Below are positions 6,620 to 62,033 of a DNA stretch of 64,000 nt, piece after piece. This DNA is from Escherichia coli. Its GTDB lineage: Bacteria > Pseudomonadota > Gammaproteobacteria > Enterobacterales > Enterobacteriaceae. Position 1 is the stretch's first letter; each line of letters starts with the position of its first letter. The DNA lies in NCBI RefSeq assembly GCF_001677475.2, contig NZ_CP015229.1; one strand, given 5' to 3'. The translations under genes and the position numbers were made by a program. Below the pieces are notes generated by a model. It was not told where the DNA came from. It did no database searches and saw only the letters and a program-made list of their open reading frames with translations.

Positions 6620-8011
<1,392 letters not shown>

Positions 8012-54178: not shown

Positions 54179-55036
54179 ATGTCAATTAAAACAATTAAGT
54201 ATTTCTCAACAATTATTGTAGCGGTAGTTGCGGTTCTTGCCGGATGGTGGCTGTGGAATTATTACATGCAATCTCCGTGGACACGCGACGGGAAAATACG
54301 CGCAGAACAGGTTTCTATCACCCCACAGGTGTCGGGACGTATTGTTGAGCTGAATATAAAAGACAACCAACTGGTTAACGCGGGGGATCTTCTGCTCACG
54401 ATCGATAAAACGCCCTTTCAGATCACCGAGCTGAATGCACAGGCTCAGCTGGCGAAAGCGCAATCTGACCTCGCAAAAGCCAATAACGAAGCGAATCGTC
54501 GTCGTCATCTCTCACAAAATTTTATTTCTGCCGAAGAACTCGATACCGCTAACCTCAATGTTAAAGCGATGCAGGCCAGTGTTGATGCCGCACAGGCGAC
54601 GCTGAAACAGGCACAATGGCAACTGGCGCAAACGGAAATTCGCGCCCCGGTGAGCGGATGGGTGACTAATCTTACTACCCGCATCGGCGATTACGCTGAC
54701 ACCGGGAAACCGCTGTTTGCTCTTGTCGATAGCCACTCGTTTTACGTCATTGGTTATTTTGAAGAAACCAAGTTGCGCCATATCCGCGAAGGTGCACCAG
54801 CACAAATAACCCTCTATAGTGATAACAAAACGTTACAGGGTCACGTTTCCAGTATCGGTCGGGCGATTTATGATCAGAGCGTTGAAAGTGACTCAAGCCT
54901 TATTCCGGATGTGAAACCTAACGTCCCCTGGGTTCGCCTCGCCCAACGCGTTCCGGTCCGCTTTGCGCTGGATAAAGTCCCAGGCGATGTCACGCTGGTG
55001 TCGGGCACCACCTGTAGCATTGCCGTAGGTCAATAA
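54179..55036 (+). CDS. ydhJ: HlyD-family membrane fusion protein (AaeA-like)
   Basis: ORF track 54137..55036; likely start MSIKTIKYF (285 aa). Confidence 0.85.
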
Positions 55037-57048
55037 TGAACGCATCGTCATGGTCCTTGCGCAATTTGCCCTGGTTCAGGGCCACGCTGGCGCAATGGCG
55101 TTATGCGTTACGCAATACCATTGCCATGTGTCTGGCGCTGACGGTTGCCTATTATTTGAATCTGGATGAGCCCTATTGGGCGATGACCTCGGCTGCAGTG
55201 GTTAGCTTTCCCACCGTTGGCGGTGTCATCAGCAAAAGCCTCGGACGCATCGCTGGCAGTTTACTGGGAGCCATAGCAGCACTGATTCTTGCCGGGCATA
55301 CGCTCAATGAGCCATGGTTTTTTCTATTGAGCATGTCGGCGTGGCTTGGCTTTTGTACCTGGGCCTGTGCGCACTTCACGAATAACGTCGCGTATGCATT
55401 TCAACTGGCGGGCTACACGGCTGCCATCATCGCCTTTCCGATGGTTAATATTACTGAGGCCAGCCAGCTGTGGGATATCGCTCAGGCGCGCGTTTGCGAG
55501 GTGATAGTCGGTATTTTGTGCGGCGGCATGATGATGATGATCCTGCCGAGCAGTTCCGATGCTACAGCCCTTTTAACCGCATTGAAAAACATGCACGCCC
55601 GATTACTGGAACATGCCAGTTTACTCTGGCAGCCTGAAACAACCGATGCCATTCGTGCAGCACATGAGGGGGTGATTGGGCAGATACTGACCATGAATTT
55701 GCTGCGTATCCAGGCTTTCTGGAGCCACTATCGTTTTCGCCAGCAAAACGCGCGCCTTAATGCGCTACTCCACCAGCAATTACGTATGACCAGTGTCATC
55801 TCCAGCCTGCGACGTATGTTGCTCAACTGGCCCTCACCGCCAGGTGCAACACGAGAAATTCTCGAACAGTTGCTGACGGCGCTCGCCAGTTCGCAAACAG
55901 ATGTTTACACCGTCGCACGTATTATCGCCCCGCTACGCCCGACCAACGTCGCCGACTACCGGCACGTCGCCTTCTGGCAGCGACTACGTTATTTTTGCCG
56001 CCTTTATCTGCAAAGTAGTCAGGAATTACATCGTCTGCAAAGCGGTGTGGATGATCATACCAGACTCCCACGGACATCCGGCCTGGCTCGTCATACCGAT
56101 AACGCCGAAGCTATGTGGAGCGGACTGCGTACATTTTGTACGTTGATGATGATTGGCACATGGAGTATTGCTTCGCAATGGGATGCCGGTGCCAATGCAT
56201 TAACGCTGGCAGCAATTAGCTGCGTACTCTACTCCGCCGTCGCAGCTCCATTTAAGTCGTTGTCACTGCTGATGCGCACGCTGGTGTTACTTTCGCTATT
56301 CAGCTTTGTGGTCAAATTTGGCCTGATGGTCCAGATTACCGATCTGTGGCAATTTTTACTGTTTCTCTTTCCACTGCTTGCGACAATGCAGCTTCTTAAA
56401 TTGCAGATGCCCAAATTTGCCGCATTGTGGGGGCAACTGATTGTTTTTATGGGTTCGTTTATCGCTGTCACTAATCCCCCGATGTATGATTTTGCTGATT
56501 TTCTTAACGATAATCTGGCAAAAATCGTTGGCGTTGCGCTGGCGTGGTTAGCGTTCGCCATTCTGCGTCCAGGATCGGATGCTCGTAAAAGTCGCCGTCA
56601 TATTCGCGCGCTGCGCCGGGATTTTGTCGATCAACTAAGCCGCCATCCATCACTGAGTGAAAGCGAATTTGAATCACTCACTTATCATCACGTCAGTCAG
56701 TTGAGTAACAGCCAGGATGCGCTGGCTCGCCGTTGGTTATTACGCTGGGGTGTAGTGCTGCTGAACTGTTCTCATGTTGTCTGGCAATTGCGCGACTGGG
56801 AATCGCGTTCCGATCCGTTATCGCGAGTACGGGATAACTGTATTTCACTGTTGCGCGGAGTGATGAGTGAGCGTGGCGTTCAGCAAAAATCACTGGCGGC
56901 CACACTTGAAGAATTACAGCGAATTTGCGACAGCCTTGCCCGTCATCATCAACCTGCCGCCCGTGAGCTGGCGGCAATTGTCTGGCGGCTGTACTGCTCG
57001 CTTTCGCAACTTGAGCAAGCACAACCGCAAGGTACGCTGGCCTCTTAA
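55036..57048 (+). CDS. ydhK: Fusaric-acid-resistance/AaeB-like (ArAE family) efflux permease
   Basis: ORF track 670 aa. Confidence 0.85.
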
Positions 57049-57570
57049 TTACTTAATTACACCACAGGCATAGCGTTCACCGCCACCGCCCAGCGGTTTA
57101 GGTTGATCGGACATATTATCGCCGCCAACGTGGACCATCAGCGCTTTGTCTTTGATTTCATCCAGTGATTTCAGACGAGGCGCGATGACGGCATCGGTAG
57201 CTTTGCCGTCATTATTGACGACCAGTGCAGGCAGATCGCCTAAATGCCCGGCACCTTCTGGCCCTTCATGTTTACCGGTATTTTGTGGATCAAGATGCCC
57301 GCCTGCGGATTCCGCGGCGCTGGCTTTGCCATCTTTGGTGGCTGGCTGGCAGCTTCCTTTGGCATGAATATGGAAGCCATGTTCACCGGGGGGTAATGCT
57401 TTCAGATCGGGCGAAAACTCCAGACCTTTATCGGTTTCAGTAATGGTGACGCTACCAATTGACTGCCCAACCCCTTGCGACGTGACGAGGTTCATCTCGA
57501 CTTTTTCACTGGCAGCTTGTGCGCCGGTCGCAACAACCAGCGCCAGAATGGCCAGACTAAAACGTTTCAT
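57049..57570 (-). CDS. sodC: Periplasmic Cu,Zn superoxide dismutase
   Basis: ORF track 57049..57621; start likely MKRFSLAILALVVATGAQA (173 aa); His-rich Cu/Zn ligand motifs. Confidence 0.95.
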   Translation of the reverse strand: MKRFSLAILALVVATGAQAASEKVEMNLVTSQGVGQSIGSVTITETDKGLEFSPDLKALPPGEHGFHIHAKGSCQPATKDGKASAAESAGGHLDPQNTGKHEGPEGAGHLGDLPALVVNNDGKATDAVIAPRLKSLDEIKDKALMVHVGGDNMSDQPKPLGGGGERYACGVIK

Positions 57571-57650
57571 AGGACCTCCGTTCATTGTGCATTCCTGAAT
57601 AAGTGTAAACCAGTGACACATTTTTGAACGGCGGCTATTCCTAAAAGTGC

Positions 57651-58547
57651 TTACGGTACGTCGTAACCCAGTGCCGCTTTACGGATACGGAACCATTGTT
57701 GACGGGTCATTTTCAGTGTTTCAGCTTCGACAGCTGCCCGTACGCGCTCAATTTTACCTGAGCCGATAATTGGCAGCGGCTGCGACGGTAAACGTAATAC
57801 CCAGGCGTAAACCACCTGTTCAATCGAGCCCGCGTTTAACTCCTCCGCCACCACAGCCAGTTCATCACGCAGCGGCTGGAAATAATCATCATTAAACAGA
57901 CGACCACCACCAAGGCAGGACCACGCCATCGGACGAACACGCAGTTGTTGCAGTTGGTCGAGCGTGCCATCCAGCAGTAACGGCTGATGCACCGGGGATA
58001 TTTCCACCTGATTAGTGGCAAGGGTAAACGGCAGGCGTGATTGCAACAGGGCAAATTGCGCGGGCGTGAAGTTGGATACGCCAAAATGGCGCACTTTGCC
58101 GCTCTGATGCAGATGTTTAAACGCGTCCGCCACTTCATCGGCATCCATTAACGGGTCTGGTCGGTGGATTAACAGCAGATCGAGATGATCGGTCGCGAGA
58201 TTAATTAGCGACTGTTCGGCGCTCTTAATGATGTGATCGCGGTCAGTGATGTAATGACCAATGACGTTTTCTTCACGCGCGGTCGTCGCGATACCGCATT
58301 TACTGACGATTTCCATCCGTTCACGCAGGTGAGGAGCCAGTTTCAGCGCCTCGCCAAACGCCGCTTCGCACTGATAGCCACCATAAATATCAGCATGGTC
58401 CACGGTGGTCACGCCGAGATCCAGATGCTCTTCAATAAAACTGACCAGCTGGCGGGCGGACATATTCCAGTCCATCAATCGCCAGTAGCCCATCACAAAA
58501 CGGGAAAACTCCGGGCCTTGCGGCGCAATAGTAATACGCTGAACCAT
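57651..58547 (-). CDS. ydhF: Aldo/keto reductase family oxidoreductase
   Basis: ORF track 298 aa. Confidence 0.85.
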   Translation of the reverse strand: MVQRITIAPQGPEFSRFVMGYWRLMDWNMSARQLVSFIEEHLDLGVTTVDHADIYGGYQCEAAFGEALKLAPHLRERMEIVSKCGIATTAREENVIGHYITDRDHIIKSAEQSLINLATDHLDLLLIHRPDPLMDADEVADAFKHLHQSGKVRHFGVSNFTPAQFALLQSRLPFTLATNQVEISPVHQPLLLDGTLDQLQQLRVRPMAWSCLGGGRLFNDDYFQPLRDELAVVAEELNAGSIEQVVYAWVLRLPSQPLPIIGSGKIERVRAAVEAETLKMTRQQWFRIRKAALGYDVP

Positions 58548-58595
58548 AATCGCTTCCTCTTATCAGATATGAGAGGAGTATACGCAAGATTAGGC

Positions 58596-58835
58596 TCAAA
58601 AGAGTGATGGTTGCTCCGGTTCGTCTGATGACGCTGGCTTATTTGCGCGTAATTTGCGCATTAATCGCTGCCGACAAAGGCGCAGCACCTCTTGTTTTTC
58701 GCCATCGCTCATTTTATTCCAGTTAAAACGCTCATCCCGACTACGAAAACAGCCGCGACAAAACCCGCGTTCGTCAGACTGGCAAATTCCCCGGCACGGG
58801 CTCTGGACGGGAAAGAACTCTAATTGCTCCGCCAC
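58596..58835 (-). CDS. ydhL: DUF1289 small Cys-rich protein
   Basis: ORF track 79 aa; CRGICQSDERGFCRGCFRS motif. Confidence 0.8.
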   Translation of the reverse strand: MAEQLEFFPVQSPCRGICQSDERGFCRGCFRSRDERFNWNKMSDGEKQEVLRLCRQRLMRKLRANKPASSDEPEQPSLF

Positions 58836-59031
58836 TTCGCCCTCCTCAGATAAGTTTTACTCTAAATAATTCGAGTTGCAGGAAGGCGACGAGTGAATGA
58901 ATCCCCTGGAGCTTACTAAAGTAAGTGACTGGGGTGAGTGAACGTGGTCGCAGCACATGCAACTTGAAGTATGACGAGTGTATTACCACTATTGAAGCTC
59001 TTAATACCCAAAGTAGCAACTTTGCTTGCAC

Positions 59032-59047
59032 TAGACCGACTGGTCTA
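59032..59047. promoter_or_regulatory. NemR box TAGACCGACTGGTCTA (inverted TAGACC arms) in ydhL/nemR divergent region
   Basis: Matches published NemR operator; 15 bp upstream of nemR start. Confidence 0.7.
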
Positions 59048-59061
59048 CTACACTCCAACGC

Positions 59062-59661
59062 ATGAACAAACACACCGAACATGATACTCGCGAACATCTC
59101 CTGGCGACGGGCGAGCAACTTTGCCTGCAACGTGGATTCACCGGGATGGGGCTAAGCGAATTACTAAAAACCGCTGAAGTGCCGAAAGGTTCCTTCTATC
59201 ACTACTTTCGCTCTAAAGAAGCGTTTGGCGTTGCTATGCTTGAGCGCCATTACGCCGCATATCACCAGCGACTGACTGAGTTGCTGCAATCCGGTGAAGG
59301 TAACTACCGCGACCGCATACTGGCTTATTACCAGCAAACACTGAACCAGTTTTGCCAACATGGAACCATCAGTGGTTGCCTGACAGTAAAACTCTCTGCC
59401 GAAGTGTGCGATCTGTCAGAAGATATGCGTAGCGCGATGGATAAAGGCGCTCGCGGCGTGATCGCCCTGCTCTCGCAGGCGCTGGAAAATGGCCGTGATA
59501 GCCATTGTTTAACCTTTTGTGGCGAACCGCTGCAACAGGCACAAGTGCTTTACGCACTATGGCTGGGTGCGAATCTGCAGGCCAAAATTTCGCGCAATTC
59601 CGAGCCACTGGAAAACGCGCTGGCACATGTAAAAACCATTATTGCGACGCCTGCCGTTTAG
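59062..59661 (+). CDS. nemR: TetR-family electrophile-sensing repressor NemR
   Basis: ORF track 199 aa. Confidence 0.9.
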   Translation: MNKHTEHDTREHLLATGEQLCLQRGFTGMGLSELLKTAEVPKGSFYHYFRSKEAFGVAMLERHYAAYHQRLTELLQSGEGNYRDRILAYYQQTLNQFCQHGTISGCLTVKLSAEVCDLSEDMRSAMDKGARGVIALLSQALENGRDSHCLTFCGEPLQQAQVLYALWLGANLQAKISRNSEPLENALAHVKTIIATPAV

Positions 59662-59697
59662 CAGGCATTTTTTATCACCAGACGACCGGGAGCCTTT

Positions 59698-60795
59698 ATG
59701 TCATCTGAAAAACTGTATTCCCCACTGAAAGTGGGCGCAATAACTGCGGCAAACCGTATTTTTATGGCACCGCTGACGCGTCTGCGCAGTATTGAACCGG
59801 GTGACATCCCTACCCCGTTGATGGCGGAATACTATCGCCAACGTGCCAGTGCCGGTTTGATTATTAGCGAAGCCACGCAAATTTCTGCCCAGGCAAAAGG
59901 GTATGCTGGTGCACCTGGCATCCATAGTCCGGAACAAATTGCCGCATGGAAAAAAATTACCGCTGGCGTTCATGCTGAAAATGGTCATATGGCCGTACAG
60001 CTGTGGCACACTGGACGAATTTCTCACGCCAGCCTGCAACCTGGCGGTCAGGCACCGGTAGCGCCTTCAGCACTTAGCGCGGGAACTCGTACTTCTCTGC
60101 GCGATGAAAATGGTCAGGCGATCCGTGTTGAAACATCCATGCCGCGTGCGCTTGAACTGGAAGAGATTCCGGGTATCGTCAATGATTTCCGTCAGGCCAT
60201 TGCTAACGCGCGTGAAGCCGGTTTTGATCTGGTAGAGCTCCACTCTGCTCATGGTTATTTGCTGCATCAGTTCCTTTCTCCTTCTTCAAACCATCGTACC
60301 GATCAGTACGGCGGCAGCGTGGAAAATCGCGCACGTCTGGTGCTGGAAGTGGTCGATGCAGGGATTGAAGAATGGGGTGCCGATCGCATTGGCATTCGCG
60401 TTTCGCCAATCGGTACTTTCCAGAACACAGATAACGGCCCGAATGAAGAAGCCGATGCACTGTATCTGATTGAACAACTGGGTAAACGCGGCATTGCTTA
60501 TCTGCATATGTCAGAACCAGATTGGGCGGGGGGTGAACCGTATACTGATGCGTTCCGCGAAAAAGTACGCGCCCGTTTCCACGGTCCGATTATCGGCGCA
60601 GGTGCATACACGGTAGAAAAAGCCGAAACGCTGATCGGCAAAGGGTTAATTGATGCGGTGGCATTTGGTCGTGACTGGATTGCGAACCCGGATCTGGTCG
60701 CCCGCTTGCAACGCAAAGCTGAGCTTAACCCACAGCGTGCCGAAAGTTTTTACGGTGGCGGCGCGGAAGGCTACACTGATTACCCGACGCTGTAA
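59698..60795 (+). CDS. nemA: N-ethylmaleimide reductase (Old Yellow Enzyme family, FMN)
   Basis: ORF track 365 aa. Confidence 0.95.
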
Positions 60796-60875
60796 TCCAA
60801 CATTGCGAGCGGCGCAAAGCCGCCGCTATACTAAAACAACATTTTGAATCTGTTAGCCATTTTGAGGATATAAAG

Positions 60876-61283
60876 ATGCGTCTTCTTCATACCATGCTGC
60901 GCGTTGGCGATCTGCAACGCTCCATCGATTTTTATACCAAAGTACTGGGCATGAAACTGCTGCGTACCAGCGAAAACCCGGAATACAAATACTCACTGGC
61001 GTTTGTTGGCTACGGCCCGGAAACCGAAGAAGCGGTGATTGAACTGACCTACAACTGGGGCGTGGATAAATACGAACTCGGCACTGCTTATGGTCACATC
61101 GCGCTTAGCGTTGATAACGCCGCTGAAGCGTGCGAAAAAATCCGTCAAAACGGGGGTAACGTGACCCGTGAAGCGGGTCCGGTAAAAGGCGGTACTACGA
61201 TTATCGCGTTTGTGGAAGATCCGGACGGTTACAAAATTGAGTTAATCGAAGAGAAAGACGCCGGTCGCGGTCTGGGCAACTAA
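60876..61283 (+). CDS. gloA: Glyoxalase I (lactoylglutathione lyase)
   Basis: ORF track 135 aa. Confidence 0.95.
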
Positions 61284-61385
61284 TCTCCTGCCGGGCGTGA
61301 ACTCCTCGCGCCCGCATCTTTACTGCATCGACAAGTAATATTTGTCATAATGCGCGCTGCAATTTATCCGTATTAAGAGAATCAG

Positions 61386-62033
61386 ATGTCCGATAACGCT
61401 CAACTTACCGGTCTGTGCGACCGTTTTCGTGGTTTTTATCCTGTTGTGATCGATGTTGAAACAGCCGGATTTAACGCCAAAACCGATGCGCTGCTTGAGA
61501 TTGCCACCATCACCCTGAAAATGGATGAACAAGGCTGGCTGATGCCGGACACCACATTACATTTCCACGTCGAACCATTTGTCGACGCAAATTTGCAGCC
61601 AGAGGCCCTCGCCTTCAACGGCATTGACCCGAACGATCCCGATCGCGGCGCGGTCAGCGAATACGAGGCGCTACACGAAATTTTTAAAGTTGTGCGTAAA
61701 GGTATTAAAGCGAGCGGTTGTAACCGCGCCATTATGGTGGCGCACAACGCCAATTTCGATCACAGCTTTATGATGGCCGCCGCAGAACGCGCCTCACTGA
61801 AACGTAACCCGTTCCACCCTTTCGCCACTTTTGACACTGCTGCACTGGCCGGGCTGGCACTCGGACAAACCGTATTGTCAAAGGCTTGCCAGACCGCTGG
61901 CATGGACTTCGACAGCACCCAGGCGCACTCCGCGCTGTACGACACCGAACGCACTGCTGTGCTGTTTTGTGAAATCGTCAACCGCTGGAAACGTCTGGGA
62001 GGCTGGCCGCTACCTGCCGCCGAAGAGGTGTAA
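61386..62033 (+). CDS. rnt: Ribonuclease T (DEDDh exonuclease)
   Basis: ORF track 215 aa. Confidence 0.95.

Follow-up and report, generated by a model that had tools for sequence, protein, structure and literature searches.

We analysed a 64-kb stretch of Escherichia coli DNA (the window) and report on its block at 57049-61283, where sodC, ydhF and ydhL on the minus strand adjoin nemR, nemA and gloA on the plus strand. The region very probably consists of independent transcription units that lie together through a gene order inherited in Enterobacterales: ydhK, then sodC-ydhF-ydhL, divergent from nemR-nemA-gloA, and then rnt. A preliminary description had proposed that the genes next to nemRA-gloA might share its stress-response context. 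Its six gene identifications and coordinates were borne out by the open reading frames (ORFs), the family scans and the RefSeq names and order, and nemRA-gloA is indeed the only part known as an operon (PMC3739934, PMC5297802). The shared context held as a theme, the products plausibly acting on reactive oxygen species (ROS) or electrophile chemistry and both ydhL and gloA having come out of an H2O2 and HOCl screen, but a single NemR box, separate conserved promoter elements, a broken junction, modular synteny and other regulators of sodC spoke against it. No operator or promoter common to the six genes was found, and every test of regulatory or evolutionary coupling that we ran was negative or neutral. 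A stress context shared by sodC, ydhF and ydhL with nemRA-gloA is weakly supported; for regulation and evolution the evidence points against coupling, and ydhL is the only open case. Gene identities, the operator, the conservation of promoter elements and synteny were computed, and the NemR mechanism, readthrough and sodC regulation were taken from the literature. The gene set, from the ORF listing and family scans, is given here with its flanks:

55036-57048, plus strand: ydhK (FUSC family efflux), flank on the sodC side
57049-57570, minus strand: sodC, periplasmic Cu,Zn superoxide dismutase (SOD), 173 aa; NF007628 equivalog, 365 bits (cut-off 165), full-length; PF00080
57651-58547, minus strand: ydhF, NADPH-dependent aldo-keto reductase (AKR); PF00248
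58596-58835, minus strand: ydhL, DUF1289 protein, 79 aa, GTG start; PF06945, 69 bits
59062-59661, plus strand: nemR, TetR-family electrophile and HOCl sensor-repressor; TetR_N (PF00440) and TetR_C_13 (PF16925)
59698-60795, plus strand: nemA, N-ethylmaleimide reductase of the Old Yellow Enzyme (OYE) family; NF007899, 765 bits (cut-off 403), full-length; PF00724
60876-61283, plus strand: gloA, glyoxalase I; NF007629, 305 bits (cut-off 246)
61386-62033, plus strand: rnt (followed by lhr), flank on the gloA side

The NemR operator and the promoter elements of the block

The NemR-box pattern TAGACCnnnnGGTCTA had a single match in the window, at 59032-59047, where 0.04 were expected by chance; with one box in 64 kb, additional NemR operators serving sodC or ydhF through sites of their own were ruled out. 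Among 61 species, 54 have a box within the 60 nt preceding nemR, and a palindromic operator inside the nemR promoter spacer is the classical geometry of repression. The elements of the plus-strand unit are as follows:

59026-59054, plus strand: nemR promoter TTGCAC-17-TACACT as read from the sequence (TTGCAC 59026-59031, TACACT 59049-59054)
59032-59047, plus strand: NemR box TAGACCGACTGGTCTA, filling the spacer of the nemR promoter
59649-59673, plus strand: hairpin GCCTGC-N6-GCAGGC with T6, overlapping the nemR stop; a terminator-like site, weak terminator or attenuator
60803-60832, plus strand: predicted own promoter of gloA, TTGCGA-18-TATACT, in the nemA-gloA spacer (promoter scan)
61292-61314, plus strand: terminator-like hairpin 3' of gloA, 9-bp stem with 7 GC pairs (terminator scan)

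As expected of a readthrough operon, and in agreement with PMC3739934, nemR, nemA and gloA lie on the same strand, the terminator scan found no terminator-like site in the nemA-gloA spacer, and gloA has a promoter there; the hairpin at 61292-61314 probably marks the 3' end of the unit before rnt. Co-transcription of nemRA-gloA and its induction by electrophiles have been described, as have the inactivation of NemR by electrophiles, quinones, glyoxals and HOCl through cysteine modification, the readthrough of de-repressed transcription into gloA, and a CRP-sensitive promoter of gloA itself (PMC3739934, PMC5297802); NemR does not respond to ROS (PMC5297802). Cys21, Cys98, Cys106, Cys116, Cys149, Cys153 and Lys175 are all present in the window's NemR, which thereby matches the residues whose sensing roles were described in PMC5297802, including Cys21, Cys106, Cys116 and Lys175.

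For the minus-strand genes, conserved upstream elements were sought as phylogenetic footprints in 80 ydhL-anchored Enterobacterales loci (each species represented by a single genome, and orthologues of the window's proteins mapped by tblastn), and their frequency was compared with that in control windows. Each of the three genes had such an element:

58991-59019, minus strand: promoter-like element of ydhL, TTGCTA-N17-TTCAAT; conserved footprint
58577-58582, minus strand: -10-like TATACT in the ydhL-ydhF spacer, probable ydhF promoter; conserved footprint
57602-57628, minus strand: sodC promoter TTCAAA-15-TACACT(TA); conserved footprint and published sequence

Of the 80 species, 63 had TTGCnn-N17-TTCA[AC]T at 24-34 nt before the ydhL start, compared to 0.5% of control windows. 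Upstream of ydhF, TATA[AC]T occurred at 29-42 nt in 59/68 species (0.9% of controls), and the -10 form TAnRCTT[AT] preceded sodC by 29-37 nt in 49/57 (0.5% of control windows). The sodC promoter, in the ydhF-sodC spacer, is identical in sequence to a constitutive RpoD promoter published for this gene (PMC3946193). These conserved -10-like elements would be active promoters, and ydhL, ydhF and sodC are best read as three promoters in series and not as one operon, probably outside NemR control; the ydhL and ydhF elements appear to be previously undescribed. Since the terminator scan found no terminator-like site in either the ydhL-ydhF or the ydhF-sodC spacer, transcription from ydhL could read through into ydhF and sodC. 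A simple bicistronic ydhL-ydhF operon was also considered; it is favoured by the conserved 49-bp gap and weakened by the invariant TATACT within it, readthrough still being possible. Readings of the ydhL upstream element as a sigma-54, sigma-E or sigma-32 promoter did not fit the aligned upstream sequences.

We also considered whether sodC, ydhF and ydhL share stationary-phase sigma-S expression, in parallel to and unconnected with the control of nemRA-gloA by NemR, and we regard this as unlikely. The conserved sodC -10 has the TAnRCTTA shape in 47/57 species, the shape typical of sigma-S promoters. A conserved C stands before the -10 of ydhL (cTTCAAT), that of ydhF is TATACT, and the spacers among the three genes lack terminator-like sites. 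Moreover, RpoS induces sodC, and FNR represses it (PMC3349551). However, such promoter-shape arguments are weak, and neither published nor computed support for RpoS dependence of ydhL or ydhF was found. Among 68 Enterobacterales species with at least 6 kb upstream and at least 5 kb downstream of ydhL, the set used for all synteny counts, sodC was missing from 21 loci and ydhF from 11. The known regulators of sodC are factors unrelated to NemR, and no difference was found between the window and the described E. coli sodC, a monocistronic gene for an RpoS-induced, FNR-repressed periplasmic Cu,Zn-SOD, in either protein or promoter.

Under the arrangement of independent units, NemR would repress its own promoter through the one palindromic operator that fills the promoter spacer, and modification of its cysteines by electrophiles or HOCl would release it. 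Transcription would then pass through nemR, the weak hairpin and nemA into gloA, which would also be transcribed from its own promoter, and reach the terminator-like hairpin. On the other strand, ydhL, ydhF and sodC would each be transcribed from a conserved element some 30 nt ahead of its start codon, with some readthrough possible, yielding an uncharacterised Cys4 protein (YdhL), a carbonyl-reducing aldo-keto reductase (YdhF) and the periplasmic SOD. The predicted transcription starts fall about 7 nt downstream of 58991 for ydhL, 58577 for ydhF, 57602 for sodC and 59054 for nemR.

The electrophile-response operon nemRA-gloA of E. coli K-12 has reportedly been described by Umezawa 2008, Lee 2013, Ozyamak 2013 and Gray 2013. 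The window resembles it in the identical gene order, the six NemR cysteines and Lys175, an identical NemA, one palindromic NemR box in the promoter spacer, the lack of a terminator between nemA and gloA, and the separate gloA promoter. The difference is an additional ERIC repeat in the window's lineage, located towards ydhL and 46 bp before the nemR -35; otherwise nothing substantial differs, and the nemR promoter and operator are intact despite the repeat.

Two further features of this unit were observed in the alignments. The nemR -10, TACACT, ends 7 nt before the nemR ATG (59049-59064) and a Shine-Dalgarno sequence is absent, with equal geometry in Citrobacter; together these suggest that the nemR mRNA may be leaderless or near-leaderless. 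In addition, a second NemR-box-like palindrome, TAGAC-N5-GTCTA, is present in the nemR-nemA spacer of 54/61 Enterobacterales species, ending 10-18 nt before the nemA ATG, and a hairpin with a T-run overlaps the nemR stop in 44/61; in Citrobacter or Salmonella the palindrome reads TAGACGACCGGTCTA. In Escherichia (the window and one further locus, L020), the weaker hairpin is kept and the right half-site is gone through a deletion of about 9 bp, leaving the degenerate sequence CCAGACGACCGGGAG. As most relatives carry both the terminator-like hairpin and the second palindrome before nemA, the E. coli nemRA layout looks like a derived state. No mention of this second site was found in the searchable literature.

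ydhL beside the NemR operator

Several observations weigh against the independence of ydhL. In Escherichia, Citrobacter and Salmonella the NemR box lies at a fixed distance from this gene, 88-73 nt upstream of its start, and ends about 14 nt upstream of its -35, so that NemR could influence ydhL in these genera. In a screen of ASKA overexpression clones, ydhL was recovered for resistance to H2O2 (including at 3x the minimum inhibitory concentration) and to HOCl, a stress that NemR senses, and gloA was in both sets (PMC8228696). In the supplement to the RNA polymerase chromatin immunoprecipitation-microarray (ChIP-chip) study of methylglyoxal by Ozyamak et al., one of two lists places 60% of ydhL inside the induced region. 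Furthermore, ydhL remains by gloA in 67/68 Enterobacterales species, the ydhL hexamer TTCAAT and the -35 regions match the sigma-70 consensus weakly and were not returned by a generic promoter scan, and it is from sequence that we infer the independence of the minus-strand genes from NemR.

These points could be accommodated if, in Escherichia and its close relatives, the operator in the 102-bp ydhL-nemR spacer also controlled ydhL and, by readthrough, ydhF, which would make ydhL-ydhF a hitherto unrecognised branch of the response to electrophiles and HOCl. Methylglyoxal-rich honey indeed selects mutations in nemR or the ydhL-nemR spacer; however, these are explained by de-repression of nemRA-gloA, the cause given by the authors (PMC8127710). 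The ChIP-chip overlap is likewise open to a simpler account. The induced region was called from a single probe, at 1724134. This position falls in the stretch assigned to ydhM (nemR), past the ydhL end of both called regions, and this same nemR-internal peak probe appears in both lists; the region covers 100% of ydhM (nemR) and 56-74% of nemA, and ydhF and sodC are absent among the methylglyoxal-induced regions listed (Ozyamak et al. supplement). Spill-over from a ChIP-chip region of 1.5 kb is the simplest account of the ydhL overlap.

Comparison across species also argued against control of ydhL by the operator. In Escherichia, Citrobacter and Salmonella the centre of the box falls near -57, counted from the inferred start site of ydhL, an atypical position for a repressor; Kosakonia and Phytobacter have the box about 20 nt more distant from ydhL. 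In about 47/80 loci, including those of Enterobacter, Buttiauxella, Yersinia and Erwinia, the box is absent within 200 nt of ydhL, and most of these keep the ydhL element. The element occurs with nemR, an eptA-like gene or a LysR gene as the upstream neighbour, and most loci in which gloA is the direct neighbour lack it. Because loci without a NemR box or with inserted genes keep it, the ydhL promoter travels with ydhL and not with nemR. No paper linking the expression of ydhF or ydhL to NemR was found in the searchable literature. Taken together, we consider a NemR regulon extending divergently to ydhL and ydhF improbable, and retain separate transcription units as the preferred reading.

The nemR-ydhL distance, scored in loci with full flanks and nemR nearby, was 99-224 bp in 30/55 species and 0.75-3.5 kb in 25/55. 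In the three loci that we examined, the insert encodes an EptA/EptB-type phosphoethanolamine transferase (PF08019 and PF00884), and that of Winslowiella also encodes an NAD(P)H-binding protein (SDR) and a LysR regulator:

L042, 5212-6969 (Enterobacter): nemR-ydhL insert with an eptA/eptB-type gene
L081, 5190-6827 (Yersinia): nemR-ydhL insert with an eptA/eptB-type gene
L068, 3529-6930 (Winslowiella): nemR-ydhL insert with an eptA/eptB-type gene

Gaps of this size in 25/55 species mark the nemR-ydhL junction as a hot spot for gene insertion.

A cluster of comparable composition is yqhC-yqhD-dkgA, in which a regulator, an aldehyde reductase and an AKR serve glyoxal and furfural detoxification. 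The likeness is that of a local regulator beside reactive-carbonyl reductases that include an AKR, here ydhF near nemR. However, the AKR of that cluster is demonstrably under its local regulator, whereas ydhF, on the opposite strand, is separated from the NemR box by two promoters and one gene and gave no sign of NemR control. Purified YdhF reduces an alpha-hydroxyketone (PMC12084309).

Gene order in Enterobacterales and conservation in E. coli

Across the 68 species, gloA was present in 67, rnt in 65, nemA in 59, ydhF in 57, nemR in 55, ydhK in 53 and sodC in 47, and all seven genes in 43. Nine species (among them Photorhabdus, Dickeya and Erwinia psidii) have only rnt-gloA divergent from ydhL and lack nemRA, ydhF, sodC and ydhIJK; a metagenomic contig (L015) likewise has ydhL divergent directly beside gloA-rnt. 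This bare layout was seen in L015, L075, L078, L079, L083, L085, L090, L094, L095 and L098. The stable core is therefore rnt-gloA beside ydhL, the only arrangement held by the nine species and L015, and nemRA, ydhF, sodC and ydhIJK come and go as modules. The ydhL-gloA pair is the most persistent adjacency in the region.

The wider region is also syntenic, with slyA, slyB and anmK and, further on in Pluralibacter, grxD and sodB, so that conservation of the six-gene block is indistinguishable from background synteny. Outside Enterobacterales, AKR, SodC, TetR, OYE and glyoxalase genes were not found within 5 kb of ydhL homologues in Photobacterium, a Pseudomonas-like genome, Shewanella or Aeromonas, and the same linkage was not found in two metagenomic contigs. 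There is no sign of repeated independent clustering, which would indicate functional coupling. Linkage beyond background synteny was thus not seen: gain and loss were modular and insertions occurred within Enterobacterales, and none of the linkage was present in the four genera outside.

It is possible, though we think it rather unlikely, that the adjacency means nothing at all beyond the nemRA-gloA unit and that the redox theme is a historical accident, a by-product of how common oxidoreductase-type genes are. In favour of this, slyA, ydhIJK and rnt, and at a greater distance grxD and sodB in Pluralibacter, are conserved as one block irrespective of function; the ydhL-nemR junction readily takes up unrelated genes; and the loci sampled outside Enterobacterales showed no linkage. 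However, ydhL lies directly by gloA even without nemRA, ydhF and sodC (the nine species and L015), ydhF, where present, is nearly always 44-59 bp downstream of ydhL, and the overexpression phenotypes of ydhL and gloA overlap. Inherited gene order joining independent units, with ydhL kept by gloA, remains the reading that we prefer.

Within the species the block is the standard chromosomal arrangement, an already known locus that is not peculiar to the window. Megablast found the six genes in 5420/5426 complete E. coli genomes, and the RefSeq annotation of the best-matching E. coli genome has identical gene names and order. At the DNA level the window is 99.1% identical to the best complete RefSeq E. 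coli genomes and 91% identical to E. albertii, with YdhL 100% identical between the window and E. albertii; two draft E. coli assemblies, L099 and L100, share 99.9% identity with it over 7-9 kb, the ERIC-type repeat included. On these DNA identities an E. albertii origin, which the YdhL match had suggested, was rejected, and the window belongs to a natural E. coli lineage. SodC, NemA and YdhF are identical to the K-12 Swiss-Prot entries SODC_ECOLI, NEMA_ECOLI and YDHF_ECOLI. The N-terminus of SodC is signal-peptide-like (MKRFSLAILALVVATGAQA), YdhF matches PDB entry 1OG6 'YdhF' (also 1UR3) over its full length (residues 1-298, E 2.5e-201), and all four metal ligands of GloA (H5, E56, H74 and E122) are present.

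At the edges of the block, the sodC stop codon has its last base at 57049, numbered on the plus strand, and the gloA stop ends at 61283. The plus-strand ydhK and the minus-strand sodC converge, and their stop codons abut at 57048/57049 (57046-57051) with no spacer and no terminator; convergent transcription would enter the opposite gene.

The ydhL leader and the YdhL protein

The ydhL-nemR spacer is 226 bp in the window compared to 102 bp without the repeat that it contains:

about 58856-58980, no strand assigned: ERIC/IRU-type dispersed repeat of 125 bp in the ydhL 5' untranslated region (UTR), recognised as an insertion relative to the empty site in E. coli WB61

We assign the 125-bp repeat to the ERIC/IRU family on the basis of the ERIC consensus. 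It resembles that family in being an intergenic, imperfect palindrome of about 125 bp that is probably transcribed, in having about 10 copies per E. coli genome (median 10 places per genome at a coverage of at least 80%, in 5425 genomes), and in its central motif GAGCTTAC..AAGTAAGTGACTGGGGTGAG. Its difference lies in the site, which is empty in 5426/5426 RefSeq complete E. coli genomes, none of which covered the insertion junctions (0/5426), and filled in E. albertii. A copy at the same ydhL site was found in the draft E. coli L099 and L100 and in E. albertii NBRC 107761 (L019). The window's copy is about 92% identical to that of E. albertii, where flank identity is 91%, and 92% identical to its best paralogue, values that fit an orthologous copy as well as an independent insertion.

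The repeat separates the ydhL promoter element from the Shine-Dalgarno sequence of the gene and would therefore lengthen the inferred ydhL leader from about 23 to about 150 nt. RNAfold pairs CGCCUUCCU of the repeat with the ydhL ribosome-binding site, AGGAGGGCG, in an overall fold that is unexceptional (z = -1.76). Two Citrobacter species (L035 and L037, at about 6920-7000) carry an unrelated insert of about 51 nt with inverted repeats in the same spot of the ydhL 5' UTR; small repeats may target this position recurrently.

YdhL remains an uncharacterised Cys4 protein. Residues P13, C14, C18, C26, C29, R31, R33, E35 and W39 were invariant in an alignment of 41 diverse homologues, and its family, DUF1289, comprises 1316 clusters at 50% identity. 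In the AlphaFold model, which is confident (pLDDT 83), a long basic helix follows a cysteine knuckle, and no solved relative of YdhL was found by sequence or fold search. The label 'predicted Fe-S protein' is a source annotation only.

One could go further and propose that ydhL, with the downstream ydhF, is an unrecognised oxidant and electrophile defence module, functionally tied to glyoxalase I since the Enterobacterales ancestor, and that the ERIC repeat retunes ydhL translation in the window's lineage through its pairing with the ribosome-binding site. In support, ydhL lies by gloA in 67/68 species, even where nemRA, ydhF and sodC are missing, it lies beside the NemR operator in Escherichia, Citrobacter and Salmonella, and the Cys4 protein could serve as a redox-sensitive metal or Fe-S factor. 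To this proposal as a whole we assign little credence.

We conclude that this is a textbook E. coli locus, in which the suggested link of the neighbouring genes to nemRA-gloA was not borne out by operator, promoter or comparative evidence. By-products of modest value are the predicted promoter positions for the poorly characterised ydhL and ydhF, the lineage-specific ERIC insertion in the ydhL leader, and the apparently derived state of the E. coli nemRA layout. If it is true that YdhL is an oxidant-defence factor linked to glyoxalase, this would give a function to the uncharacterised family DUF1289.

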